Assembly: GCA_965209085.1 (NCBI GenBank)
Contig: OZ242376.1
Span: 1,376,001 to 1,440,000, forward strand
Direction of reading: 5' to 3'
From: Nitrosopumilaceae archaeon
Lineage (GTDB): Archaea > Thermoproteota > Nitrososphaeria > Nitrososphaerales > Nitrosopumilaceae
Length of the DNA stretch: 64,000 nt
Below, one piece after another: positions 1,498-61,300 of the stretch (position 1 is its first letter; each line of letters starts with the position of its first letter). The position numbers were made by a program, and so were the translations under genes. Below the pieces are notes generated by a model. The model was given only the letters and a program-made list of their open reading frames with translations. It searched no databases and was not told the DNA's origin.

Positions 1498-2372
1498 ATT
1501 CTTATGTGAAATGCAGCATCCAATGCAACTCCTGCGAATATTATTACAAGATATGGTGCAGTTACTTTGTAAGCTTTCCACGCAAACTCAGAAGTTGGAT
1601 TTTGTACCAACTTGTAATGGTATACAAGCATCAATCCGCCAGATACTGCTGCAATTACAAGATAAACTAGACCAAGTCCAAATGCGTACAGTACAAGTGA
1701 ATACGGCAAAAGCAACGCAGTGTTAACTAGTATGTATTTTGAGGTTTTGTGCATTCCTATAACCACCGGCAGCATTGGAATCTTGGCTGCTGCATAATCG
1801 TCTCTGATCTTCATGGCAAGACACCAAAAATGTGACGGAGTCCACGCAAAAACCAAAAATCCCACCAAAATTCCAAGAATGTTGATCGAGCCATCCGCTG
1901 CTGCCCATCCGGCCATCGAGGCGGCACTGCCGGCAAATCCGCCTATTACGATGTTTGATGTGTGTCGACGTTTGAGCCATACTGTGTATATTATTACATA
2001 AAAGAACACTCCAAGCGCGGTAAAAAATGCAGTGAGTGGATTTAATGCAAAATATGCGTATATCACGGATGCACAGCTTGCAGCAAGCCCATATGCTAGC
2101 ACTACTGTCGGTGAGATGCTGCCAGATGGTATGGGTCGTTTGCTAGTTCTAGTCATAATCAGATCTATATCCTTGTCATAATAGTGGTTGAGCGCGCTAG
2201 AGCCTGCAGATGCAACTGCACCCACTATGATAATGTTCAAGTATGCAGCATAATTTGGTGAATCCGGCATTACATACAGCGTTTCGGCAGCATACAGTGA
2301 CGTAACTGCCGTAATTACCAACAGTATCACTATGCGCGGTTTCGAGACCTCTAGTATCTGAGCAAGCACCAA
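1494..2372 (-). CDS. cyoE: Protoheme IX farnesyltransferase (heme o synthase)
   Basis: UbiA-family motifs NHYYDKDIDLIMTRTSKRPIPSG, YTVWLKRR, WTPSHFW, DDYAAAKIPMLPV; multi-TM. Confidence 0.93.
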   Translation of the reverse strand: MVLAQILEVSKPRIVILLVITAVTSLYAAETLYVMPDSPNYAAYLNIIIVGAVASAGSSALNHYYDKDIDLIMTRTSKRPIPSGSISPTVVLAYGLAASCASVIYAYFALNPLTAFFTALGVFFYVIIYTVWLKRRHTSNIVIGGFAGSAASMAGWAAADGSINILGILVGFLVFAWTPSHFWCLAMKIRDDYAAAKIPMLPVVIGMHKTSKYILVNTALLLPYSLVLYAFGLGLVYLVIAAVSGGLMLVYHYKLVQNPTSEFAWKAYKVTAPYLVIIFAGVALDAAFHIRI

Positions 2373-2586
2373 GGAAATTTATGAATATATCGGGATTTTT
2401 AACTCTATAGTACTCCCGTTTTAGGGATCGTATGGCGTGTTCAATCCACGCATATTCGGTATGAGGTCAGCACCTCGTGCTATTTTGTGCATACATATTC
2501 ATTTATTGCATAAATTCTAGGCATGATGTGACCTCGCACCATATTCGTTTACAAAGGGTTAATTATTACGCCTAGTGAGGGCGGTT

Positions 2587-3372
2587 ATGAGTAACTGGGA
2601 TTTAATGATGCCCGGAATGGGTCTTACAGCCATAGGTCTTGCAGGAGTTGTCATATCCTATTCAGGAGTGGCTCACACGTTCTTAGACGGTATGCACTCT
2701 CTGACCGGACTTACCATGTTTATAGGACTGATCTTTTTGGCAGCTGGAATATTACAGGGCGGTGTATCCACTAGCAACAAGGCAAAGGCCACAGTTTTAG
2801 TCATACTTTCAATATCACTGGCATTTGGAACTGCCGGACTGATATACAACACGATAAGCACGGTTCCACTCTTTGCTGGGATTATGATGATTATTGTAGT
2901 ACCTGCAATTATCATAGCGTATGTATCTACAAAGATGCCAGCGTACGCGCGCGCCATGTCGATAATATTTATACTTGCGGCAGTGGCAGGGATAAGTTCG
3001 TTTACAGCGTTTGGTTATATTGGTCCATCACCGTATCTTGTAGAAGAGACCGTGGTGGCAGAACCCATACCAGAAATTCCCCAGGGTCGGGCATTTGCAA
3101 TATCCATACTAGCAGGTTCCGCCCAGCAGGGCAATCCAGACTATGATCCAGAAAACGCAGTTGTTCCATCAGGTGAGATCATAAAATGGTCAAACGACGA
3201 CGATATTGTTCACACGGTAACTAGTACAAAGGATGTTGGGGAATCATTTGATTCAGGATTAATCTCGCCCGGTAGCGAGTATCTGCTTGATCCGTCAATA
3301 CTTGAATCCAAAGCGTATGACTATCTTTGCATAGTACATCCGTGGATGAGTGCCTCTTTTACAATCGAATAA
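2587..3372 (+). CDS. Membrane protein with C-terminal cupredoxin (blue copper) domain
   Basis: About 5 TM helices, then WSNDDDIVHTVTS...YLCIVHPWM (type-1 Cu ligands His/Cys/His/Met); ATG 2587 follows a TATA-like element at ~2559-2568. Confidence 0.85.
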   Translation: MSNWDLMMPGMGLTAIGLAGVVISYSGVAHTFLDGMHSLTGLTMFIGLIFLAAGILQGGVSTSNKAKATVLVILSISLAFGTAGLIYNTISTVPLFAGIMMIIVVPAIIIAYVSTKMPAYARAMSIIFILAAVAGISSFTAFGYIGPSPYLVEETVVAEPIPEIPQGRAFAISILAGSAQQGNPDYDPENAVVPSGEIIKWSNDDDIVHTVTSTKDVGESFDSGLISPGSEYLLDPSILESKAYDYLCIVHPWMSASFTIE

Positions 3373-3788
3373 TGTTGACAGATTACATATTGTTAAATGA
3401 GTCACATACAAAAAAAATGTCAGATCATGCCAAAAACTCTCTTCCAAATGAGGCATGTGCCATTTTACTTGGTGATGTAGATGGCAGAGGTGTCATTCTA
3501 AAAGAAACGGTCATGGTAGAGAATGCGGATGCATCACCTGTTGAATTTTCCATAAATCCAGATCAATTATTCAGCACATATGCAAAGGCTGAAAAAGATG
3601 GTCTAAAGGTAATCGGAATATTTCATTCGCATCCAGTATCAGAAGCTGAGCCATCAGAGATGGATAAGAAATTTATGATGATAAATCCAGGAGTGTGGCT
3701 CATTTATTCCCAATCTAGCGGAAAATTTGCAGCATACGGCATCGATAGCGATAAAGCAGTGTATAAAATTTACATTCGTATGCATTAG
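3372..3788 (+). CDS. JAB/MPN+ (Mov34, M67) metalloprotease
   Basis: PNEACAILLG and IFHSHP...PSEMD (JAMM motif); ATG overlaps the upstream stop. Confidence 0.88.
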   Translation: MLTDYILLNESHTKKMSDHAKNSLPNEACAILLGDVDGRGVILKETVMVENADASPVEFSINPDQLFSTYAKAEKDGLKVIGIFHSHPVSEAEPSEMDKKFMMINPGVWLIYSQSSGKFAAYGIDSDKAVYKIYIRMH

Positions 3789-3824
3789 ATTGGTTTTTTA
3801 CCAAGACGCAAAAATAATTTCCAC

Positions 3825-4649
3825 ATGACTGAATCAATATCTGCAACATCAGCTTTGGTTCTGCTAATGGGCAGAGAATATTATGCCGGCGGATATGCAA
3901 AAAAATTTCTGAATTTGGTAAATTTGGATTCAGGTCTTGCCATGAAAAAACTCTCCGACAAGGTTTGGCCAAACTATGGGGAAATTGTTAAAAATCGCAA
4001 AGACTCCGTATACAGAACAATAACAGGCAGTTGTGATAAAATCGATCAGGTGGTTATTTTGGCATCAGGATACGATGCACAGGCTTTGAACGTTGCAGAA
4101 AAAAATAAGGGAATTTCGATATTCGAGGTCGACATACACAACATGGATGAAAAATCCGCCAGATACGACAGTATGGATATGGGGGAAATGCGCAAACGCG
4201 TGTCCGCTGTAACGTGTGATATAACATCAGGGAGTCTTTTTGTAAAACTAGAGAATGCTGGCTGGAACAGTCAAAAACCCACGGTAATAGTGGCAGAAGG
4301 TATTAGCTATTATCTAAGATACGAGCAGTTTTGGGATCTTGTATCGCAGTTTTCCTCTGAAAATTCCCACAACCGCATGGTGGTAGACTATATGGTGCCG
4401 ATGTACAAGATGGATTCAGAAAACAGTGCAAGGATGTCAGGCGTGTTTAAAATAATATGCGATAGTGTGGATATGGATTTTTTGACCGTATACGAGTATG
4501 AAAATATGCACAAACGCATACTTGGACTTGGTGGAAGGCCCATATCACATGAAACGCTTCACATGATGGAGCTTGCGCGCACCGGAAAGAGTACGTATTT
4601 TGATCAAAGTTCACGCGGGGGCATAGAAACGTGTTCTTTTGACATATGA
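3825..4649 (+). CDS. Class I SAM-dependent methyltransferase (LCM-like family)
   Basis: QVVILASGYD, FEVD and IVAEGISYYL motifs typical of the leucine carboxyl methyltransferase-like family. Confidence 0.8.
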   Translation: MTESISATSALVLLMGREYYAGGYAKKFLNLVNLDSGLAMKKLSDKVWPNYGEIVKNRKDSVYRTITGSCDKIDQVVILASGYDAQALNVAEKNKGISIFEVDIHNMDEKSARYDSMDMGEMRKRVSAVTCDITSGSLFVKLENAGWNSQKPTVIVAEGISYYLRYEQFWDLVSQFSSENSHNRMVVDYMVPMYKMDSENSARMSGVFKIICDSVDMDFLTVYEYENMHKRILGLGGRPISHETLHMMELARTGKSTYFDQSSRGGIETCSFDI

Positions 4650-4683
4650 TATGGCATATATGCGGATTACTGACGATATAGTT

Positions 4684-5463
4684 ATGCTGACTGTAATTCC
4701 GATCAAGGCTGCAAGAGAGCGCGGCGTGTTTAATCTCTTTGATGCCATAACTACATCTCTTGCAAAGTCTAGCTCAAATTTGCAAAACGGAGACATTTTG
4801 GTTATATCCACAAAATACGTCTCGTATTCGCAGGGCAGATGCATACCGCTTGATGATGTGGTATGCTCGCAAGATGGCAGGACACTTGGGGAAAAATACG
4901 GACTTGGTGAGAATATGGCAGAAACAATACTGCGTGAGTCAGATGTAATATTTGGCGGCGTTCGAGGTTTTGTAATGGCAGCATGTGGGAAAATTCTTGC
5001 ACCAAATGCTGGAATCGACATGTCAAATTCGGATAAAAAAAATGCAATTTTGTATCCAGTAAATCCGTATGCTGTAGCAGAACAGATACGCCGCATGATA
5101 TTTTTAAAATGGTCCGTGCATACGGGTATCATACTTTCAGACAGCAGACTAGCTCCAGTAAGGGCAGGAACCACCGGCGTGGCAATCTCTTGTTCGGGAA
5201 TATCACCCACCGAAGATAAAAGAGGCACCATGGATCTGGACGGCAGGCCGCTGCTTGTTACAGCACAGGCAACAGCTGACAATATTGCCACAATTGCAAA
5301 TCATATGATGGGCGAGGGGGCAGAGTCCACCCCTCTGGCAATAGTCAGAAATTCAGGAGCTAAGATGACCGGTAAAAGAGCAAACCCGGATACTGCTGCA
5401 GTATCGTATGAGAAATGCCTCTATATGCGGGCATTGAGATCAGATAATGCTCAGAGCGTATGA
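4684..5463 (+). CDS. cofE: Coenzyme F420-0:L-glutamate ligase
   Basis: GDILVISTKYVS, PNAGIDMSN, DSR...R.GTTGVA, DLDGRPL, MGEGAESTP. Confidence 0.88.
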   Translation: MLTVIPIKAARERGVFNLFDAITTSLAKSSSNLQNGDILVISTKYVSYSQGRCIPLDDVVCSQDGRTLGEKYGLGENMAETILRESDVIFGGVRGFVMAACGKILAPNAGIDMSNSDKKNAILYPVNPYAVAEQIRRMIFLKWSVHTGIILSDSRLAPVRAGTTGVAISCSGISPTEDKRGTMDLDGRPLLVTAQATADNIATIANHMMGEGAESTPLAIVRNSGAKMTGKRANPDTAAVSYEKCLYMRALRSDNAQSV

Positions 5464-5591
5464 ATTTAACATGTAATAATAATATTTTGGGTCTAGATCT
5501 TAATTTTTCGTATAAATTATAGGCACGGGCAAACTCGTGCGTCAAAGCAACAAAACGTATTAAATATAACCAAAATTTGCTTTTAGAATGA

Positions 5592-6143
5592 ATGGATTAC
5601 GATACTAGATACCCAAAAACCATAAAGTGCGACAATGGCAAAAAAACAAGGGTAAAAATAAACAAAGACGAGGTCGAACACCTTCATCTAGTGGTGCGTA
5701 AAAACATCGATGAACTTGTAAACATGTTCAAAAAAGAGGGGTTTACCGGAGTAAAATTTGAACATAAAAAAGTTGCGCAGATAGGCAAGGGTCTTAATTT
5801 AAAACTCAAAAGACCATGGGAGATGCATATAAGATTTATCGACATGAAGAAGGGACTTGTAGCTATACAGGGGGAAGTCGAAGTTTCCAGGGATTATCTG
5901 CAGCACCTGTTCTGCCAAAGCACGCCTGTCATATACGAGATTGAAAACGTACTCAAGAAAAATCTGATAGACTACCGCGTGTGGAATTCAAGAATTGGCA
6001 GCTATATCAGCTCCGTTTTGGACAATTATTCCATAAAATTGGCAAAACCAAACATACCAGTGTTTGCATGGAAACCCATGGTATACGTCATAGGATGCAT
6101 TGGAACGTTGTATCTGTGCAGATATCTTTTGAGAGTATCCTAA
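5592..6143 (+). CDS. Hypothetical protein with C-terminal TM helix
   Basis: 183-aa ORF, TATA-like ttaaatata ~25-30 nt upstream, hydrophobic C-terminus. Confidence 0.7.
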   Translation: MDYDTRYPKTIKCDNGKKTRVKINKDEVEHLHLVVRKNIDELVNMFKKEGFTGVKFEHKKVAQIGKGLNLKLKRPWEMHIRFIDMKKGLVAIQGEVEVSRDYLQHLFCQSTPVIYEIENVLKKNLIDYRVWNSRIGSYISSVLDNYSIKLAKPNIPVFAWKPMVYVIGCIGTLYLCRYLLRVS

Positions 6144-6181
6144 TAGAAATTTTAATTACACACGGTGCAAACCGTTGCATC

Positions 6182-6727
6182 ATGGAAAAAAGCTCGCAAA
6201 TTCTAATGATGCATTATGGAATCTCCCCATGGGAGCTTGAAGTTGCATATGGTATATTTTCCAAAAAATTTGCCGTTGAACAAAAAGACATTGAATACGA
6301 CGGCGAGGAATATTCCAGCATACTCCAGATAGACATACCTGTGGTTTTTGGAGACATGTTTTTTGACTGGTTTGGGCGCAAGGAATGGGATAGGATGAAA
6401 TTCCTCCTAAAGGAGATGAAACGCAGAAGGGGCGGCAGAAAGGCGATAAAGACGGTTGTAAATTTTGCCGGAGAGCCGACAATACGGTTTATAGTTGACG
6501 CACAAGACCGCGATTGGTACAACAATGCCGTAGAGAAAATGGATTTTATGACAGAGCTCATACAGCATCATTTGGCCGAGGGTGAGATACCCAAAGGGGC
6601 GGAGAGTGTAACGTACAGGTATGATGAAAAAACAAAAAAATGGTCCATACAGGAGGCGGTTGCAGACGGGTGTGAATTTATTAAAAAAAATGGCTCGTGG
6701 ACAAAAATAATTCCAGCAGAAGACTAG
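6182..6727 (+). CDS. Hypothetical protein
   Basis: Likely start MEKSS at 6182; the longer track ORF overlaps the preceding gene. Confidence 0.65.
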   Translation: MEKSSQILMMHYGISPWELEVAYGIFSKKFAVEQKDIEYDGEEYSSILQIDIPVVFGDMFFDWFGRKEWDRMKFLLKEMKRRRGGRKAIKTVVNFAGEPTIRFIVDAQDRDWYNNAVEKMDFMTELIQHHLAEGEIPKGAESVTYRYDEKTKKWSIQEAVADGCEFIKKNGSWTKIIPAED

Positions 6728-7680
6728 ACTTGCAGCGAATCAAGTATGTCCTGTGCAACCTCAACTGGCCTGCCCTCAGAGGATATCTGCTGTTCTGCTG
6801 GAGGATTGTCCTCGTAGCCTGGTATGTTATCGCCCATACGGCTTACAAACGGACGGGCCGTATTGTTTTTGTAAAATATTCCCACGGGTATTTTATCATC
6901 CCATTCTAATGATTTTGTAACGGCCATTCCCATCTTTTCGTTTATTTGATCTTCACGGTTTACGTTGCCATCGTACCCGACATCATCTAGCCGGTATATG
7001 CGCGAGTGCCTCTCTGTAGCCTCTGATGCAAGATCCTCTCCGGCATACCACTCACGTGTATTCACGTCATTATACGTGGGGCAGGGCTGCAGTACGTCCA
7101 AAAATGACGTACCCTTGTGCTGCACGGCAGAAATTATCAGATCCTTTAGATGTCTAACGTCGTACGAGTATCCCCTTGCCACGAACGTAAAACCGCTTGC
7201 CACGGCAAGTCCGATTGGGTTTACTGCATAATTTGGATTTGGTACCGCAAGTGATTTTGTCTTTTCTCCAAGTTTTAACGTGGGCGAGGCCTGCCCTTTG
7301 GTAAGTCCGTATACTCCGTTGTTGAATATAATGTATGTAATATCCACGTTACGCCGTCCTGCCGCAACAAAGTGTCCGGCACCTATTCCCAGTCCGTCAC
7401 CATCCCCGCCTGCGGCCAAAACTGTAAGATTTGGATTTGCAAGTTTTGCCCCCTGTGCAAACGTCAAAACCCTGCCGTGCAGCGTGTGCACGCCGTAGAC
7501 GTTTACAAAATGGGAAGTCTTTCCAGAGCATCCTATGCCGGTAAAAAGGGCAGTTTTATGTCTAGGCAATCCCATCTCGGCCAGCGCCATTTGTATTGAA
7601 TTTACAATTCCAAAGTCGCCGCATCCTGGACACCAGTCGTTGTGTACATTGGTTTTAAATTCGGACAGTTTAGACGCCAT
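6724..7680 (-). CDS. korB: 2-oxoacid:ferredoxin oxidoreductase beta subunit
   Basis: WCPGCGDFG, GIGCS, TPP motif GDGD...NN, QPCPTYN. Confidence 0.92.
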   Translation of the reverse strand: MASKLSEFKTNVHNDWCPGCGDFGIVNSIQMALAEMGLPRHKTALFTGIGCSGKTSHFVNVYGVHTLHGRVLTFAQGAKLANPNLTVLAAGGDGDGLGIGAGHFVAAGRRNVDITYIIFNNGVYGLTKGQASPTLKLGEKTKSLAVPNPNYAVNPIGLAVASGFTFVARGYSYDVRHLKDLIISAVQHKGTSFLDVLQPCPTYNDVNTREWYAGEDLASEATERHSRIYRLDDVGYDGNVNREDQINEKMGMAVTKSLEWDDKIPVGIFYKNNTARPFVSRMGDNIPGYEDNPPAEQQISSEGRPVEVAQDILDSLQV

Positions 7681-9589
7681 ATGTTAAAACCTCCCGTTTT
7701 TTTGCAGAGCCGGAAACTGCAGACTCTATTACGCTGCAAAGTTCCGTGCATGTCATCGCCCTGCCGGTATATTTTAAAATATTCACATCCGGTTCCAGTC
7801 CGGTCTGTTGCCGCAAAAGCATTCCAAATTGTCCTGTCTGGTTTGATTCAATGTTTATGATTGTTTTGGCATCTTGCAGCATTGAGGATATAATCGCTGC
7901 CGGAAATGGCCAGAGAAGTTTTGCCTGTACAAATCCCACGCGTATTCCCTTATTTTCCAGCATGTGCATGGCATCAAGTATCGGACCTTTGCATGAGCCC
8001 CAGCTTGTTATCATTACAGGCTGTCTGCCTCCGTGCAATACTGCCTGCTCTTCAGGAGGCAGATCTTTTAGCAGTGCGTCGTATTTTGAGAGACGTTTGT
8101 CCATCATTTTTTGCCGTAATCCTGGATCCTCGGTGATGTGTCCTTTTTCATCACGCTCATCCCCAGTATTCCAGAATATGCCCCCCTCCATGCCGATTCT
8201 AGAGCGTGGGGATATTCCATCAGGTACAAGTCTGAACCGTTTATAGTCATTCTCGGTTATTATATCTGGCATCTTTCCGCGGTCTATGCATATCCGTTCT
8301 GGCTCAAACCGGGGACACGTGCATATTGAACTGGCAATATACTTGTCCATCATGTGTATTACAGGCAGCTGGTAGTGTTCAGCATAGTTGAAACATTTTG
8401 CCGTATCGTAAAAGCTCTCCTCAACATCACCTGATGCATAAACAAGACGCGGAAATTCCCCGTGTCCGGCATGAACTGCGCACAACAGATCATCCTGTCC
8501 GTGTCTTGTTGGAAGTCCTGTGGACGGACCGCTTCTCTGATACAGGGTAATTACCACCGGTACCTCGTTGATTCCCGCCCATCCCAGGGTTTCACTCATC
8601 AGTGAAAATCCAGGACCGGACGTGCATGTTGCAGTGCGGCATCCGGTAAGAGCAGAGCCCACCGCCATCCCAATGGCGCATATTTCATCCTCTGTCTGCA
8701 CCACAATAACCGAACCGGGTTTGGTACCGCTAATTTTTTGATGTGTTTCAAGAAAATAGCTCTCATCTGTTGCCGGTGTTATAGGATAATACGGCTGCAT
8801 TCTGCATCCGCATACGAGTTTGCCTATTGCAGTGCCATGATACCCCTGTACTAGTATGGTGCGTCCTTTGCGTTCAGACTCTGGGATAGTATGGGTTAAA
8901 TTTCCAAGTGATGTGCCCACGCCGTGTGCATATCGCGATACGGACGCGTTTAGTTTTCCAAGTGCAGGTTTTGTGGCAAAAACTGATTCTGTTGCAGATA
9001 CGACTTTTTCTACAGATACTCCAAGCATTCCAAATGATGCAGAAACGCCTATGACGTTAAAGAGGCGCACCATGCGGGCAATTTTCGGTGTGTCAAGATC
9101 TTTTGCAAGATCATCCAATATTTGGCGAAACGCGACAGGATACAAATTTACTCCCGCAGTCTTTGCGGATTTGAGCACGTCTTGTACGCGTACATTCTCC
9201 AAACCGTAACGTTCCCTCAGTATTTGCAAAGATGCATCATCAAGCGTAGGAATCTCCGATGCTGCCACATCTTCTAGTTTGGAATCGTACATTATTGCCC
9301 CCCCAGAGTTTACGCTAAAAGCGTGCCGGAATATCGTTTCAGCATCATATGAGGCCATAAAATCAACTCCGCTAACGTTGGAGTGTATTGGCCTTTCAGA
9401 TACACGTATAACAAAATAGCTGTGTTCCCCCTTTATGTTGGAGTGATATTCTCTTTTGCCGAATATATGGCACCCGTTTGCAGCGCATACGGCAGAAAAA
9501 ATATTGGAAGCAGTTTCCACTCCGCTTCCCTGCGGACCTCCAATCATCCATGAAAGATCCCGCTCCATGGCTGCCATAAAATGTGCCAC
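7670..9589 (-). CDS. korA: 2-oxoacid:ferredoxin oxidoreductase alpha subunit (gamma-alpha fusion)
   Basis: IGGPQGSGV, YYPITPA, EDEI, TSGPGFSLM, RSGPSTGLPT. Confidence 0.92.
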   Translation of the reverse strand: MAHFMAAMERDLSWMIGGPQGSGVETASNIFSAVCAANGCHIFGKREYHSNIKGEHSYFVIRVSERPIHSNVSGVDFMASYDAETIFRHAFSVNSGGAIMYDSKLEDVAASEIPTLDDASLQILRERYGLENVRVQDVLKSAKTAGVNLYPVAFRQILDDLAKDLDTPKIARMVRLFNVIGVSASFGMLGVSVEKVVSATESVFATKPALGKLNASVSRYAHGVGTSLGNLTHTIPESERKGRTILVQGYHGTAIGKLVCGCRMQPYYPITPATDESYFLETHQKISGTKPGSVIVVQTEDEICAIGMAVGSALTGCRTATCTSGPGFSLMSETLGWAGINEVPVVITLYQRSGPSTGLPTRHGQDDLLCAVHAGHGEFPRLVYASGDVEESFYDTAKCFNYAEHYQLPVIHMMDKYIASSICTCPRFEPERICIDRGKMPDIITENDYKRFRLVPDGISPRSRIGMEGGIFWNTGDERDEKGHITEDPGLRQKMMDKRLSKYDALLKDLPPEEQAVLHGGRQPVMITSWGSCKGPILDAMHMLENKGIRVGFVQAKLLWPFPAAIISSMLQDAKTIINIESNQTGQFGMLLRQQTGLEPDVNILKYTGRAMTCTELCSVIESAVSGSAKKREVLTYGV

Positions 9590-56498: not shown

Positions 56499-56867
56499 TT
56501 ACTGCTCTAAAATTATGCGGTTATTGTGTACTGACATTACAGAACCCCCGTGTTTTTTTATTTCCAGTTTTAGCCTCATATCAAGCGTGGCCACTATTCC
56601 CCCATGTTTTTCAACGTGCCGTATTAATGCCCCATCTGCCCGGCGCCCTCCAATCTCTATCTCTGGCATTTTTTTTGCCCGCTCCAGCGCAGATAATGCT
56701 GTCGGACTTTTTTCAGGATCTTTTGATAGTCCGTAAAGTTCGCGTAAAACTGTATCAGGTGCAAGAAATCTTACAGGTCCAATTTCATCATCAAGTGAAT
56801 CGATGTTTTTTATCCGCGAGTTTGCCATGTGCATCAAAAAGCTGGTATCGCACAGTACGTCAGGCAA
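56499..56867 (-). CDS. PIN-domain protein (Fcf1/Utp24-like)
   Basis: VLCDTSFLM, VLREL, ADGAL, VATLD; conserved position after eIF2-gamma. Confidence 0.85.
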   Translation of the reverse strand: MPDVLCDTSFLMHMANSRIKNIDSLDDEIGPVRFLAPDTVLRELYGLSKDPEKSPTALSALERAKKMPEIEIGGRRADGALIRHVEKHGGIVATLDMRLKLEIKKHGGSVMSVHNNRIILEQ

Positions 56868-58131
56868 CTGTTCCAGCACCGATTAATCGCCATCTGTCAG
56901 TGATTCTGCTGCTGATGGCGGCACGACCTTTTTTGAATATGCATACGGGACGTCTAAATTCCACAGTTATTTTTCCGTCTTTTGCCTTTGTAACTTTACA
57001 AAGTTCAGGCGAGGTGCCTACACTGAACCTCAGCATGTCGCCTATTTTTATCGGAGGTACTTTTACAGTAGATGACATTCCGACTGCAGAATCAAAAAGA
57101 CTAGTCTCAAATGATGCACTCATCATACTTTCAGGAAGAGTTCCAGGTTTGCCTATTACAGCACCAATCAGTGAATCACCGCCGGTCATCGAGGGATCCA
57201 GTTTTGTTCCAATAGCCACGAGTCCTCCGGGAAGAACAGTATCCACCAAGCCAGCTCCGGTTCCAAGTGAATCAATCGTTGTTATGATCGGAGTGTACGT
57301 ATTTTTTTTGCCTTCCTGTACTCCGGGTTTTATTTCGATCTCATCGCCCACTTTGAAAACTCCCACAGTCAGCGATCCCCCTATAACACCGCCCTTTATT
57401 TTTGGTATTTTTGTGCCAGGTTTGTTTACATCAAACGAACGCAGTACGTGCATTACCGGATCAGCTTTGCTGTCGCGCTCTGGTGTTTTTATCTGCGATT
57501 CAATCAAACCCACAAGTGCGTCTTTGTTCAGACCCGACTGTGCCGAAACTGGCACGATTGGCGCGTTTACTTTGAATTTTTTCATAAATTTTTCCATGTC
57601 AGAATGATTCGCAATTGCCTCATCATATGTCAACAGATCAACTTTGTTTTGCACCACCACCAGCTGTTTTATTCCAAGAATTTGCAGTGCCAAAAGATGT
57701 TCTTCAGTCTGCAGCTGTGGTACTTTTTGATCAGCTCCGATTACCAAAATGCCGCCATCCATCAGGGCGGCGCCAGATAGCATGTTTGCCATAAGACTTT
57801 CGTGGCCCGGACTGTCCACTATGCTTACCACCCGGGTAAGTTCGGATTTTTTCCCACAATTGGTGCATTTTGATTCTGTGGAATATCCCTCAGGTTCCGG
57901 ACATTTGGAGCATTTGTAAAACGCCACATCCGAATATCCCACCCGTATTGTAATTCCGCGTTTTAGTTCCTGGCTGTGCGTGCTGGTCCACACGCCGGTA
58001 AGCGACTGTACAAGTGTGGTTTTTCCATGATCCACGTGTCCTGCGGTTCCTATGTTGATGCAAGGTTGGCGTCCGTATTTTTTTACATACCAGTCTGGAA
58101 GATCATCTTTCCAATGTGTCAATATGCACAT
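56860..58131 (-). CDS. eif2g: Translation initiation factor 2 gamma subunit
   Basis: GHVDHGKTT, RGITI, DSPGHE, NKVD, WRLIGAG. Confidence 0.97.
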   Translation of the reverse strand: MCILTHWKDDLPDWYVKKYGRQPCINIGTAGHVDHGKTTLVQSLTGVWTSTHSQELKRGITIRVGYSDVAFYKCSKCPEPEGYSTESKCTNCGKKSELTRVVSIVDSPGHESLMANMLSGAALMDGGILVIGADQKVPQLQTEEHLLALQILGIKQLVVVQNKVDLLTYDEAIANHSDMEKFMKKFKVNAPIVPVSAQSGLNKDALVGLIESQIKTPERDSKADPVMHVLRSFDVNKPGTKIPKIKGGVIGGSLTVGVFKVGDEIEIKPGVQEGKKNTYTPIITTIDSLGTGAGLVDTVLPGGLVAIGTKLDPSMTGGDSLIGAVIGKPGTLPESMMSASFETSLFDSAVGMSSTVKVPPIKIGDMLRFSVGTSPELCKVTKAKDGKITVEFRRPVCIFKKGRAAISSRITDRWRLIGAGTVA

Positions 58132-58251
58132 GGGTATTCCCCGTATGTTTAAGTTATTCTTTTTTCAATACTGTAAACTTGGTGTATGCGCACTAGTATG
58201 GATCTTCTTGGAATTGAACCAAAAAAATGGTCTATTATTTTCACAATAATA

Positions 58252-58447
58252 TCAATCCATGCCATCATGTTCTAATTTAGAACGCAAATAACGCATATCC
58301 GGACCACCTTTTATCCTATTACAAATTCCACACGAGTCCGCACCAGCGTCCATGCCGCTACTAGATCTAGGTTTTATATGATCAACTTGTAAATTTTATC
58401 CTGTAATGGTTTTTACAGCCATTGCAAAACTTGGATTGTTTTTCATA
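58252..58447 (-). pseudogene. Frameshifted HNH endonuclease fragment
   Basis: YEKQSKFCNGCKNHYRIK, frameshift, NLQVDHIKPRSSSGMDAGADSCGICNRIKG...*. Confidence 0.75.
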
Positions 58448-58522
58448 ATCTGAAGATTTTAACATTAAAGTTTCTGAATTAAATAAATAGTAAATACTGA
58501 ATTAAAATGCAATCTTACATAC

Positions 58523-59249
58523 TTGGGAATAATAATTAAATCTAGTATAATAAATTATTACAGCCAATCTATTACTTCTCCGCCCTCTTCGTATGGAACG
58601 GAATCGGTGTCATCATTCACAAGTAATCATATTAATATTGTTGATTATATATATTTTCATATCGACGAATTATTCTTAAGAGAATTACGTACAGAATTTG
58701 ATCAATATATGAGCATTATAAATATTCTAGAAAGAAAAGCTCAAAATCTAAGTGTCATATCTACCATATTAATTACAATATTAATTGGTACTAAAATTCT
58801 TGATAATAATGCTTCATTACACGTACTTGTTCCATTATCTATTACTGTTGGTTTATTATTAGCATCAATTGTATCTAGTCGTTTTGCAGCTGGCATTCAT
58901 GGACAAGTAATGCATATTAATTTTAGACAATTTTTTATTTTAAATCGTGTTGGAGGTGAACAATATTCTATAAATGATGATAAAATTAATCAATTCATAA
59001 TACATGATTCAATAACAATAAATGGAAAAAAATCTTCTACTAGTGATGCATCCCAAGAAAATAAATCAATTAATCTGCAGATATGTCTAATCAACGAATA
59101 TAATGGCTTTACATAATGCAGTACGAAATGGTAAACGTATCGCTAAACAGGTTAAACGTGCTCAAAAATATTTTAATCTTGGAGTAATTTCATCAGTTAT
59201 TACAGTAATCATATTATCATCATATTTGGCAAAAATTATACCGAATTAA
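58523..59249 (+). pseudogene. Frameshifted 3-TM membrane protein (Pycsar-effector-like architecture)
   Basis: ORF 58523-59116 (LERKAQNL + 2 TM + soluble region) continues in the +1 frame 59103-59249 as ALHNAVRNGKRIAKQVKRAQKYFNLG + TM. Confidence 0.6.
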
Positions 59250-59365
59250 CATCCCCTTGTAACAAAATATTACAAACTCACAATAACAAAAAGATCACTT
59301 TCAAGCAATCCAAAGAAGATCCATATTCATGTCCATGTGCCTACAAGTTTACAGTGCCTTTTTTT

Positions 59366-59788
59366 CTATTTGGATTTTTTTTCAGGTTTATCTTTTGTCT
59401 TTTCTTCAGATTTTGCTCCAGTCTTTTCTTCTTTTTTTGTTTCCGGGATTATGCCGTCCAGTCTGCAGTTTATTTGATACATTTCCTCTGTAATTTGATT
59501 TCCACGCACGAGTTTGCGCTTACGCGTGCCAGTTTCAGCCTTGTTCAAACCCACGCCAGGTGACAATAATACGTATTTACGCGCTCCGCCGTGTACGTCC
59601 TGTCTCATTGGAACGCCAGACTTGTCGCTGCCGCCGGTTATCTTTATTTTGCCTCTAAATCCAACTATGGCCGCGTCCGTTTCTTTGCCAATCTCCAACC
59701 CCAACAACGGTGTAGCCTCGGCATCCTTTAGCTCTTTTGTCATGGATTTTCCCTTTGTGTCAGATATAGTGAGCTTAAAGCTTGCCAT
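59366..59788 (-). CDS. rps6e: 30S ribosomal protein eS6
   Basis: KITGGSDKSGVPMR, RKRKLVRGN. Confidence 0.95.
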   Translation of the reverse strand: MASFKLTISDTKGKSMTKELKDAEATPLLGLEIGKETDAAIVGFRGKIKITGGSDKSGVPMRQDVHGGARKYVLLSPGVGLNKAETGTRKRKLVRGNQITEEMYQINCRLDGIIPETKKEEKTGAKSEEKTKDKPEKKSK

Positions 59789-59861
59789 GTAAACAATTTG
59801 CGTTAAGATAAGTCTAATTAACGTTTAGATCATTCATAGTTAAATTCATGTTCTTTCTTGT

Positions 59862-59990
59862 ATGTATGTGTCTGAACCTGTCTCTTGTCCAAAATGTAGC
59901 GAGGAGATGGTAGACGTACAAGTGTGTCATCTTATCTGTCCGCGATGCGGCTCCCATCTAGACTGTTCAGAAAAAGGGATTTTTTGGTAA
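59862..59990 (+). CDS. 42-aa Cys-rich zinc-finger microprotein (not in ORF track)
   Basis: MYVSEPVSCPKCSEEMVDVQVCHLICPRCGSHLDCSEKGIFW*; alternative GTG start at 59868. Confidence 0.75.
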   Translation: MYVSEPVSCPKCSEEMVDVQVCHLICPRCGSHLDCSEKGIFW

Positions 59991-60013
59991 ATTTACCACA
60001 TGCTGACTTTTAA

Positions 60014-60187
60014 TCACATGCCTGTTCTGTCGGGAATATAATCAGCTGCCATGTTTATTGCCTCGTTTTTCATAACTTCCAGATATTCTTCATATCCGTC
60101 TCCGTATCCGCAGTGGGTGCATTCAACGCGCGTCATCTCTTCGTTGACTGTTGCAACTTCTCCGCATTTTGGGCATCTTGCATCCAA
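60014..60187 (-). CDS. 57-aa zinc-ribbon microprotein (not in ORF track)
   Basis: TTG start: MDARCPKCGEVATVNEEMTRVECTHCGYGDGYEEYLEVMKNEAINMAADYIPDRTGM*. Confidence 0.78.
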   Translation of the reverse strand: MDARCPKCGEVATVNEEMTRVECTHCGYGDGYEEYLEVMKNEAINMAADYIPDRTGM

Positions 60188-60241
60188 TACGTACGGATTA
60201 TTTTGAAGCTATATAATGTTAATCGACATATTTTGGTGCAT

Positions 60242-60315
60242 GCGGGGTTAGTCCAGCCTGGTAGGACGTCAGCTTCCCAAGCTGAAGGTCGCGTGTTCAA
60301 ATCCCGCACTCCGCA
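60242..60315 (+). tRNA. tRNA-Gly(CCC)
   Basis: GCGGGGT/ACTCCGC acceptor, TCAGC-TT-CCC-AA-GCTGA anticodon arm, TTCAAAT T-loop. Confidence 0.93.
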
Positions 60316-60316
60316 T

Positions 60317-61300
60317 TTATTTCAGATCATCAAGTGCCTGCCGTATTGAATCACGGTCTGATGCATCAGGTGTGGCGCACAAATATGCTTCAAAATCTTC
60401 GCGTGCTCCGGCATTGTTTTGCCGCTGCATTCTTGCAATAGCGCGGTTTTTGTATATTGGGCCATATCTGGTGGCGTTTATTGATATTGCTTTGGTATAA
60501 AATTCCTCAGCCTTGTCATACGATTGTAATTTCAGATGGTAATTTCCAATACCCCTGTACGCAAGGTATGATCTCGGGTTTATCTCCAGTGCTCTCTCAT
60601 AATGCGGTATGCACTCGCTGGAATTTTTTTCATTGAATATGGAACCTAGCAACGAGTGTGCCGTAGAATTTAACGGGTCAAGCAGTATGGCTTTTTTTAA
60701 CGATTCTAACGCCTCGTCGGAATTTCCAAGAAGATTTTGTTTTTCTGAGAGAAAACACAGTCTGTTTGAAAGGCGTTTATCCTCAGAACCTGGCATTGCA
60801 GAGAGTTTTTCAGGCGGTGCAATTAAAATTGCAATATATCCATCCTCGGACCAGAGGGCATCAAACTGATCTTCAGGTATGACTCCCATTTGAAATTCCC
60901 CATGCTCATCTTGCTGAGGTATATAGTGCAGTATTGTTTTTGATTCGTTATCATAACCGGATATTACAGAGGCATGCTGGATTGTACGCGATATTCCAGG
61001 CAGTATGACTATTGGGGGAATTCCACCGTCTATGATCTTTCGCAGATCGTTCATTCCAGAATGCAATACAATGCACCCCAAACCGTGACGTTCTGCAAGT
61101 TCCATCCCCTCTATGAGTATGCTGCCGTTTACTTTGGGGTATTTTTTTGCAATCTCAACGGCCGATTCCATAGGTAAAGTGACATTCCAGTATTTTGATA
61201 CTGCATTTATCGACAGTGGGAGGCATATGTTATCCTCATTTACCGGCGGCAGTATCAGATCTCGATCAGAGGACATGGTTTGTTTCTGCGGTTTTTCCAA
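60317..61300 (-). CDS. Peptidase C39-like domain + TPR repeat protein
   Basis: NICLPLS (Cys), QHASVISGYD (His), then about 4 TPRs. Confidence 0.8.
   Translation of the reverse strand: MEKPQKQTMSSDRDLILPPVNEDNICLPLSINAVSKYWNVTLPMESAVEIAKKYPKVNGSILIEGMELAERHGLGCIVLHSGMNDLRKIIDGGIPPIVILPGISRTIQHASVISGYDNESKTILHYIPQQDEHGEFQMGVIPEDQFDALWSEDGYIAILIAPPEKLSAMPGSEDKRLSNRLCFLSEKQNLLGNSDEALESLKKAILLDPLNSTAHSLLGSIFNEKNSSECIPHYERALEINPRSYLAYRGIGNYHLKLQSYDKAEEFYTKAISINATRYGPIYKNRAIARMQRQNNAGAREDFEAYLCATPDASDRDSIRQALDDLK

Follow-up and report, generated by a model that had tools for sequence, protein, structure and literature searches.

The window, by which we mean the whole stretch of 64,000 nucleotides analysed here, belongs to the 1.69-Mb genome of a Nitrosopumilaceae archaeon (G000). 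Between two of its genes, rps6e and eIF2-gamma, lies an insert of 1192 bp (58167-59358) with inverted repeats at both ends. A preliminary description, made from the letters alone, had seen in it a cargo-carrying mobile element, and the tips are placed here 3 nt beyond the coordinates given there. The features of the locus are as follows, in window coordinates.

56860..58131, minus strand: eIF2-gamma flanking gene, from the list of open reading frames (ORFs) and comparison with relatives
58143-58158: conserved block between the insertion point and the eIF2-gamma start codon, the same in the same-genus relative G001
58159..58166, no strand: left copy of the target-site duplication, CTTTTTTC; an 8-nt excess over G001, matching the right copy at 7 of 8 positions
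58167..58216, plus strand: left terminal inverted repeat; terminal block AATACTGTAAACTT, 15-nt spacer, subterminal block TATGGATCTTCTTGGAATTG (58197-58216)
58255..58392, minus strand: C-terminal remnant of an HNH nuclease; 46 codons to a stop at 58252-58254, adjoining the transposase tail
58449..58529, plus strand: 3'-end remnant of an IS6-type transposase gene, with three in-frame stop codons
58661..59249, plus strand: broken passenger gene for a membrane protein of ~195 aa; a frameshift splits it into 58661-59116 and 59103-59249
59306..59358, minus strand: right terminal inverted repeat; on the minus strand GGCACTGTAAACTT, 18-nt spacer, TATGGATCTTCTTTGGATTG
59359..59366, no strand: right copy of the target-site duplication, TTTTTTTC; its final base is shared with the rps6e stop codon
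59366..59788, minus strand: rps6e flanking gene, from the ORF list and comparison; the element is inserted directly past its stop codon

A repeat search returned a perfect 12-nt inverted pair (58170-58181 / 59344-59355) and an inner inverted pair of 31 nt with 77% complementarity (58186-58216 / 59306-59336), in which the 20-nt inner blocks differ at only two positions. The bipartite inverted ends first described, with their perfect 12-nt pair, spacers of 15 and 18 nt and inner blocks identical at 18 of 20 positions, were confirmed in full, as was the AT-rich interior, the GC content of which is 0.245-0.36 vs 0.41-0.52 in the flanking genes.

Comparison with relatives showed that the insert is a mobile-element insertion with an 8-bp gain at its tips. 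A 2.3-kb query over the rps6e/eIF2-gamma site found matches in 37 of 41 genomes, G000 among them. Of the 24 same-family genomes, 17 had both genes matched on a single contig, the matched segments being separated by 41-304 nt, and no kb-scale insert was seen at this site among the 24; in the remaining seven the rps6e half was unmatched beside eIF2-gamma, and in G024 it was located on a different contig. In G001 the two matches are 69 nt apart and the eIF2-gamma part is 82% identical to the window. Alignment and anchor counting gave 23 nt between the anchors AAGTTATTC and CAGGTTT in G001, and 31 nt in the window once 58167-59358 is removed, i.e., 8 nt more. The relatives thus have empty sites from which the inserted sequence is absent, and the breakpoints coincide with the repeats, as expected for the non-autonomous, repeat-bounded insertion at the rps6e/eIF2-gamma junction that had been proposed. 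The absence of a clean target-site duplication, reported at the same time, was not upheld: with the tips set at 58167 and 59358, an 8-bp duplication matching at 7 of 8 positions is found.

Ends and transposase of the family

The ends are not confined to the window. The exact bipartite pattern was found in the 1.69-Mb genome only at the two window ends (none with the reversed control pattern), while the inner block, searched with up to 4 mismatches, occurred 16 times in the genome vs 0, 1 and 3 times in three shuffles. A terminal CTGTAAACTT-type block lies 19-27 nt upstream in nine of these 16, which makes them full bipartite ends, and the search for additional copies of the ends was in this way positive. 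The consensus of the family ends is GGTTCTGTAAACTTATCGGTGCATAGGCGTGGATATGGATCTTCTCTGAATTG, and that of the terminal block GGTTCTGTAAACTT. A hidden Markov model (HMM) of the family ends, run with nhmmer, detected additional degenerate or partial ends in the genome. When an HMM was built from the seven other ends only, it recovered the right end of the window with E 4.6e-10 and the left end with E 0.0032, genome-wide. The left tip of the window reads AAT where the family has GGT or GGC.

Both subterminal blocks of the window match the consensus at 18 of 20 positions, and the block is also kept in the ends of elements from two related genomes (G008 and G001), while the spacers between the blocks vary in sequence and length among the same ends. 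Such conservation beside drifting spacers suggests that the subterminal block is functional. Among 401 genomes of the family, the pattern CTGTAAASTT-N12-30-GATCTTCT was found in 8 genomes and in 3 of 27 genera (reversed control, 2 genomes). Most subterminal blocks contain GATC (GGATCTTCT or CGATCTT), e.g., at window 58200-58203 and 59319-59322, while in some ends the motif is replaced by GAATC or GATAT. The candidate end seen at G000 1311419 is located within an ORF, has no duplication and was treated as a chance match.

An autonomous element with ends of this kind is present in the same genome. At G000 1312905-1315944, an element of 3040 bp (copy A) has perfect terminal repeats of 25 bp and an uninterrupted transposase ORF of 371 aa (1313915-1315027), and a second copy (copy B) at 570889-575328 is split by an unrelated 1.4-kb insertion sequence (IS). 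The window ends were thus shown to be part of a repeat family for which G000 still encodes an intact IS6-type transposase. The assignment to IS6 was scored on this intact relative; the window copy has a transposase tail of only 27 residues. The 371-aa protein matched Pfam DDE_Tnp_IS240 with E 1.4e-15 and 58.1 bits (cut-off 27) and NCBIfam IS6 NF033587 with E 1.4e-33 and 116.3 bits (cut-off 125) over profile positions 1-201 of 202. IS6 was the best of seven NCBIfam families, IS1 being next with 63 bits. The N-terminal ~130 aa gave weak zinc-finger matches (SWIM; the Zn domain of IS1/IS1595), and a sequence search of the PDB with the whole protein gave no match at E < 0.1. Relatives of the transposase were found at E <= 1e-10 in 17 of 41 related genomes, G000 among them. 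At the ends of two distant paralogues (G000 787-1866 and 1308771-1309838), matching terminal blocks were not found.

The flanking 8-mers of the elements compared are given below.

G000 copy A, 3040 bp: no flanking duplication
G000 copy B, 4440 bp including the nested IS: TGTGATAA, perfect
G008 element, 6770 bp: TTTCATGA, perfect
G001 element, 2965 bp: TATACAAA, perfect
G006 element, 2733 bp: ATAAAACA, perfect
Window element, 1192 bp: CTTTTTTC / TTTTTTTC, 7 of 8 positions

A perfect 8-bp duplication was therefore present around four of the five full elements examined, in four genomes. The tips read GGTTCTG, GGTACTG or GGCACTG in 10 of the 12 cases listed, the exceptions being the left tip of the window (AATACTG) and the right tip of the G001 element (GGTATGG). 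In the family accounts of PMC7986276 and PMC6807381, 8-bp repeats and terminal inverted repeats starting with GG and having G at position 7 are named as marks of IS6, and the archaeal repeats are said to reach at least 18 bp.

The TGT...ACA ends with internal binding sites had first been taken to typify an IS481- or Tn7-like DDE element. The ends do contain CTGT...ACAG together with a subterminal repeat, and the related transposase is weakly matched by both NCBIfam IS481 NF033577 (49 bits) and Pfam rve (31.8 bits). Nevertheless, the former score is far under its cut-off of 224 and well below the 116 bits for IS6, and the latter is under its own cut-off of 32.6. The true tips are GG(T/C)(T/A)CTG, and four elements have duplications of 8 bp. 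Tn7 has a target duplication of 5 bp and a multi-protein TnsABC core; no Tns family appeared in the Pfam and NCBIfam scans of the element ORFs, which included no search aimed at Tns. An origin from IS481 or Tn7 is hardly credible on these grounds, and the earlier assignment had to be given up. Since four elements combine perfect 8-bp duplications with GGTTCTG-type tips, the family of the window element is IS6-like (ISDsp3-like), not IS481/Tn7-like.

Within IS6, the likeness to ISDsp3 lies in the IS6/IS240-type DDE catalytic domain, the 8-bp duplication and the GG-initial repeats with G at position 7. Unlike IS6 members in general, the elements described here have a transposase extension of ~130 aa with zinc fingers and bipartite ends with a conserved subterminal block. 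The window copy is further set apart by the loss of its transposase, and the NCBIfam score of its intact relative falls just under the cut-off. Typical IS6 members measure 0.7-0.9 kb with a single ORF, whereas the full elements here measure 2.7-6.8 kb with passengers. In the strict IS26-like sense (~0.8 kb, a single ORF of 213-254 aa, no passengers), elements of 2733-6770 bp with a 371-aa transposase do not belong to the group. According to PMC7986276, ISDsp3 of Dehalococcoides is the only IS6 member in ISfinder reported with a passenger gene. In the supplement (file 4) of the survey by Krupovic et al. (2019, PMC6563490), the thaumarchaeal IS6 rows (2 of 35 'IS6' entries) list ISDsp3 as best reference, with ~54% identity. 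These rows already document the transposase family in Thaumarchaeota, so that the undescribed thaumarchaeal family suggested at first is not needed, and the window element is a new member of an already known kind, IS6 (ISDsp3-like).

Remnants and decay of the window copy

No transposase had been recognised in the insert. However, 58449-58529 encodes a C-terminal remnant of one, corresponding to residues 345-371 of the 371-aa protein (15 of 27 identical, E 0.001 in a small tblastn search), and the same stretch has DNA matches to transposase 3' ends at G000 1312350-1312413 and in G001. This short stretch apart, the interior of the window element had no match in the rest of the genome.

The HNH remnant is a 46-residue fragment which matched Pfam HNH PF01844 with E 0.019 and 15.5 bits (cut-off 21.4) over profile positions 14-44 of 47. 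Its upstream CxxC part (~58393-58440) is in another frame than the part reading LQVDHIKPRSS...CGICNRIKGG. In the duplication-flanked element of G001, a 442-aa methyltransferase-HNH gene is divergent from the transposase gene, with its tail ~110 nt from the tip at the far end. The HNH tail of the window agrees with it in position and orientation and lies 85 nt from the tip. The window copy runs from its left end through the HNH tail, the transposase tail and a gap with cargo to its right end, a layout colinear with the G001 element. The simplest reading of it would be a single internal deletion with one breakpoint inside the HNH domain and the other close to the end of the transposase gene.

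The third remnant is the membrane gene. By eye, its product has apparently three hydrophobic segments. Two intact homologues, P0002 (196 aa, 80% identity) and P0003 (194 aa, 74%), align over both pieces. In the window, ATC stands in place of the start ATG of the homologues and the frame breaks after LINEY (59100-59102). No family match was obtained for the protein in Pfam, NCBIfam and PADLOC. A protein atlas offered a lead (0.93) to clusters with PycTM in 12-15% of their members, whereas the intact homologues had no Pfam match to PycTM (PF18967) at E <= 5 and none in PADLOC. The membrane effector of the preliminary description is thus left with the atlas lead only. Of the working cargo of HNH nuclease and membrane protein said to have been delivered into the operon, a frameshifted tail of 46 residues and a broken gene were found. 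The membrane gene was present in 1 of 401 family genomes, G000 itself, and scans of metagenome contigs with P0002 and of genome contigs with P0004 confirmed no relative.

Contigs of four public DNA runs (X2-X5) were compared over 57800-59800. Runs X2 and X3 were identical to the window, so that the frameshift in the membrane gene does not obviously look like an assembly slip, but one of the two may be the source sample. In run X5, a single 16.6-kb contig reaches across the whole of 57800-59800; it differs by 112 substitutions and 17 gap letters and represents a relative (~94% identical) in which the short element occupies the identical site. Of the first 40 of the 112 differences, seven fall in 332 nt of eIF2-gamma, three in the spacer and 30 in 382 nt of the left part of the element. 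In the HNH remnant, X5 has 2, 2, 5 and 1 bases left out and 1 put in, sizes that break the frame included. In the membrane gene it has +1 and -1 four bases apart, -3, and -1 at 59100, the last being the frame break of the window. The pattern of differences suggests that the left part of the element is drifting freely, while the membrane gene is in frame in the sister lineage and broken only in that of G000; in the X5 relative this gene may still be intact. Since X5 has the same short element at the same site, insertion and deletion predate the split from its organism; they postdate the split from G001. A joint skipping the element was not seen in X2-X5. Run X4 had been considered as an empty site, with 0.40 of the words, as expected for the flanks alone; its contigs contain the junction of element and right flank (59071-59512), and this reading was therefore rejected. 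One listed joint, from 59076 to 59373 (433 other letters between, side 20), was dismissed as a short match from another contig.

Taken together, 58167-59358 is very probably the relic of one insertion of a cargo-carrying transposon of the IS6 family (ISDsp3-like). As part of the same reading, the window copy is a decayed deletion derivative which may be annotated as a mobile-element relic with three pseudogenes. A DDE transposase like the intact 371-aa one, with its zinc-finger N-terminal extension and IS6-type catalytic domain, would have recognised the bipartite ends, each combining a terminal GGTTCTGTAAACTT-type block with a second, subterminal block of the TATGGATCTTCT type that lies ~30 nt closer to the interior. 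The target was the T-rich spacer separating the stop codon of rps6e from the conserved eIF2-gamma upstream block, and 8 bp of it were duplicated. Judging from the family as described in PMC7986276, movement would have proceeded by replicative cointegrate formation of the IS6 type, resolved by host recombination. The remnants point to a subsequent internal deletion which would have taken most of the transposase gene and most of a divergent passenger gene of the methyltransferase-HNH type. Both ends, the tails of the HNH and transposase genes and a single passenger gene, encoding a small membrane protein, would have been left over. This passenger gene would later have lost its start codon and gained the frameshift in G000. 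The element is now non-autonomous and single-copy, and probably immobile, the GG of its left tip being mutated to AA. As it is single-copy, there is no sign that it moved in its present form. For the window itself, the striking repeat in a core translation operon would thus be an ordinary dead relic of mobile DNA.

Several points weigh against this reading. The duplication in the window is imperfect (7/8) and T-rich and, alone, could be due to chance. The 8-base excess is the stronger argument, yet it is based on one close relative, G001. One of the five full elements examined, copy A of G000, is without a duplication, and the spacers of the window ends are strongly unlike those of this intact copy. 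The NCBIfam score for IS6 (116.3 bits) is under the curated cut-off of 125, and Harmer and Hall (PMC6807381) argue that the IS6/IS26 family proper may not include archaeal and long zinc-finger 'IS6' elements. The assignment to HNH is weak (E 0.019), and the remnant shares only 32% over 31 residues with the tail of the G001 methyltransferase-HNH protein (E 0.015, small search). Moreover, the order from full insertion to in-place deletion is deduced, and the short form could have transposed as such.

This last possibility amounts to a mobile insertion cassette (MIC), in which the 1.19-kb unit would have transposed in its short form, mobilised in trans by the family transposase, with the membrane gene as working cargo. 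The layout is indeed that of a MIC: IS ends, a target duplication, a passenger ORF and no working transposase. Terminal and subterminal blocks are kept at both ends, an intact family transposase is present in the same genome, and the short structure is common to the ~94% relative of X5. Intact homologues of the membrane gene exist elsewhere; the indels of X5 preserve the frame, and the frame-breaking base is missing there. From these indels and homologues the gene was probably functional until recently. On the other hand, the interior is without any other genome match except in the transposase-tail stretch, the membrane gene is known from G000 alone among the 401 family genomes, and the left tip lacks the GG of the family. 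The transposase and HNH remnants are what in-place deletion should leave behind. MICs, such as MIC231 of the IS231 group, and miniature inverted-repeat transposable elements (MITEs) spread as short units, usually in several copies; unlike these, the window element is single-copy, has gene remnants and looks like the product of in-place decay. We regard transposition as a cassette as improbable.

An arrival by some other route is a very unlikely explanation: an integrase might have brought in a fragment of a virus, plasmid or casposon, or two solo IS ends of independent origin might face each other by chance, and the repeats would then not be the marks of a single transposition. The interior is AT-rich and foreign-looking, the genome is full of IS copies and solo ends, and HNH genes are typical of casposons. 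Against such a route stand the gain of 8 bases exactly at both tips and the layout, which is colinear with the duplication-flanked G001 element. In a Pfam scan of part of the element ORFs, no likeness to an integrase, Cas1 or polymerase was found, and the nearest tRNA gene is intact and 880 nt away.

Passenger genes in related elements

The idea of a cargo carrier, which does not hold for the present contents of the window copy, was substantiated at the level of the family, as the related elements carry different passenger genes. In the 3040-bp element of G000 these are three small coiled-coil ORFs and a 125-aa ORF; in the G001 element, a 64-aa ORF and the methyltransferase-HNH fusion; and in the G006 element, membrane ORFs of 71, 261 and 82 aa. 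The G008 element has a methyltransferase, a 362-aa ORF and four more ORFs, one of which has a weak match to the DarG model (PADLOC, E 7.4e-6). The methyltransferase is of the N6/N4 type (Pfam, E 1.9e-42) and divergent from the transposase. Eight further transposase loci were examined with 1.5 kb on each side. In four of them the end past the C-terminus could be recognised, at a distance of 269-774 nt from the gene. The opposite end was found within 1.5 kb upstream in only one of the eight, so that additional DNA ahead of the transposase seems to be the usual case.

It follows from these comparisons that in these ammonia-oxidising archaea a single pair of ends of the related elements routinely encloses 1.3-5.4 kb of passengers of varied kinds, DNA methyltransferases and small membrane proteins among them. 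The full-length relatives, with a transposase and passengers, have the layout of a transporter IS (tIS). For the IS6 family, the count given in PMC7986276 is only two MITEs and one tIS. IS26/IS257 pseudo-compound transposons employ the same broad transposase family and, from the description in PMC7986276, are expected to form replicative cointegrates resolved by host recombination; they move cargo between two directly repeated whole IS, whereas here the cargo is inside a single pair of inverted ends. As IS6 is known for moving cargo between two IS copies, internal passengers in one end pair are a modest wider point.

Whether the elements form an undescribed clade of ISDsp3-like IS6 transposons in Nitrosopumilaceae, habitually with cargo inside a single pair of ends, is a more doubtful matter; we put it forward as a tentative proposal. 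In the 2019 survey (PMC6563490), passenger-carrying transposons of this DDE class are given as undetected in archaea, and no description of passenger-carrying elements of this kind in Nitrosopumilus-like archaea was found in open-access full text. If the proposal is true, Thaumarchaeota would have passenger-carrying DDE transposons, a class not detected in archaea in that account (PMC6563490). Such elements could be a route for the spread of restriction-modification-like and other accessory genes in a group with a poorly known mobilome.

The subterminal block, which is kept across genera, may be a second transposase-binding site, a promoter element or, judging from its sequence, a methylation-sensing switch tied to the methyltransferase cargo. 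A DNA methyltransferase is often among the passengers of the family. IS10 and IS50 have methylation-sensitive ends, and by analogy a methylation-sensitive end is conceivable here.

Some further observations were made on the passengers. The 442-aa ORF of G001, at L044 (G001:C1) 3517-4845, has by eye an N6/N4-type DNA methyltransferase followed by a C-terminal HNH motif, with the 64-aa ORF before it; the transposase of this 2965-bp element is frameshifted. The G008 element is located at L040 (G008:C1) 1624-8393, and its transposase has one in-frame TAG. The unannotated 362-aa ORF which adjoins its methyltransferase could be a nuclease partner. Related ORFs of 157-169 aa lie beside IS6-like copies at L011 2182-2691 (G000 1311181-1311690) and L040 2827-3300. 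They gave weak matches to the DarG antitoxin (PADLOC, E 2e-6 and 7e-6; NCBIfam, ~20 bits vs a cut-off of 250) and may belong to a toxin-antitoxin or defence pair. Small coiled-coil ORFs (72-123 aa), oriented inward, were repeatedly found just inside the end toward which the transposase gene reads: in G000 at 1312905-1313920 (L011 3960-4907) and also inward of the ends at 581594 and 1079938. No family match was obtained for them in the library scans (Pfam, PADLOC).

Insertion site and further repeats

The element occupies the one harmless spot, past the stop codon of rps6e and short of the conserved block that precedes eIF2-gamma. This block, GTATGTTTAAGTTATTC, lies between the insertion point and the eIF2-gamma start codon and is identical in G001. 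Most likely, eIF2-gamma keeps its own promoter, for which the conserved block is the candidate, and the insertion would for this reason have been tolerated. In the region corresponding to window 58120-58166, G001 is without an ATG at the annotated eIF2-gamma start; the true start may therefore be a TTG 9 nt downstream of the annotated one. With this TTG as start, CTTAAAC would lie at a TATA-like distance and the mRNA may be leaderless.

Beyond eIF2-gamma, the next genes are a 126-aa ORF (56499..56879) and then leucyl-tRNA synthetase; 'PIN' was a label of the preliminary description only. On the other side, an intact tRNA-Gly(CCC) gene is located at 60241-60316, 880 nt from the element, with two small zinc-ribbon-like ORFs between it and rps6e. 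No other known RNA family was detected in 57900-60500.

G000 is very rich in IS. The 1.4-kb IS which splits copy B has more than 20 copies with 81-99% identity, e.g., at G000 572688-574093, 849315-850720 and 561072-559661, all outside the window. Repeats of 75-90 nt (e.g., 568868-568951 and 570612-570693) recur dozens of times in the genome and are MITE-like.

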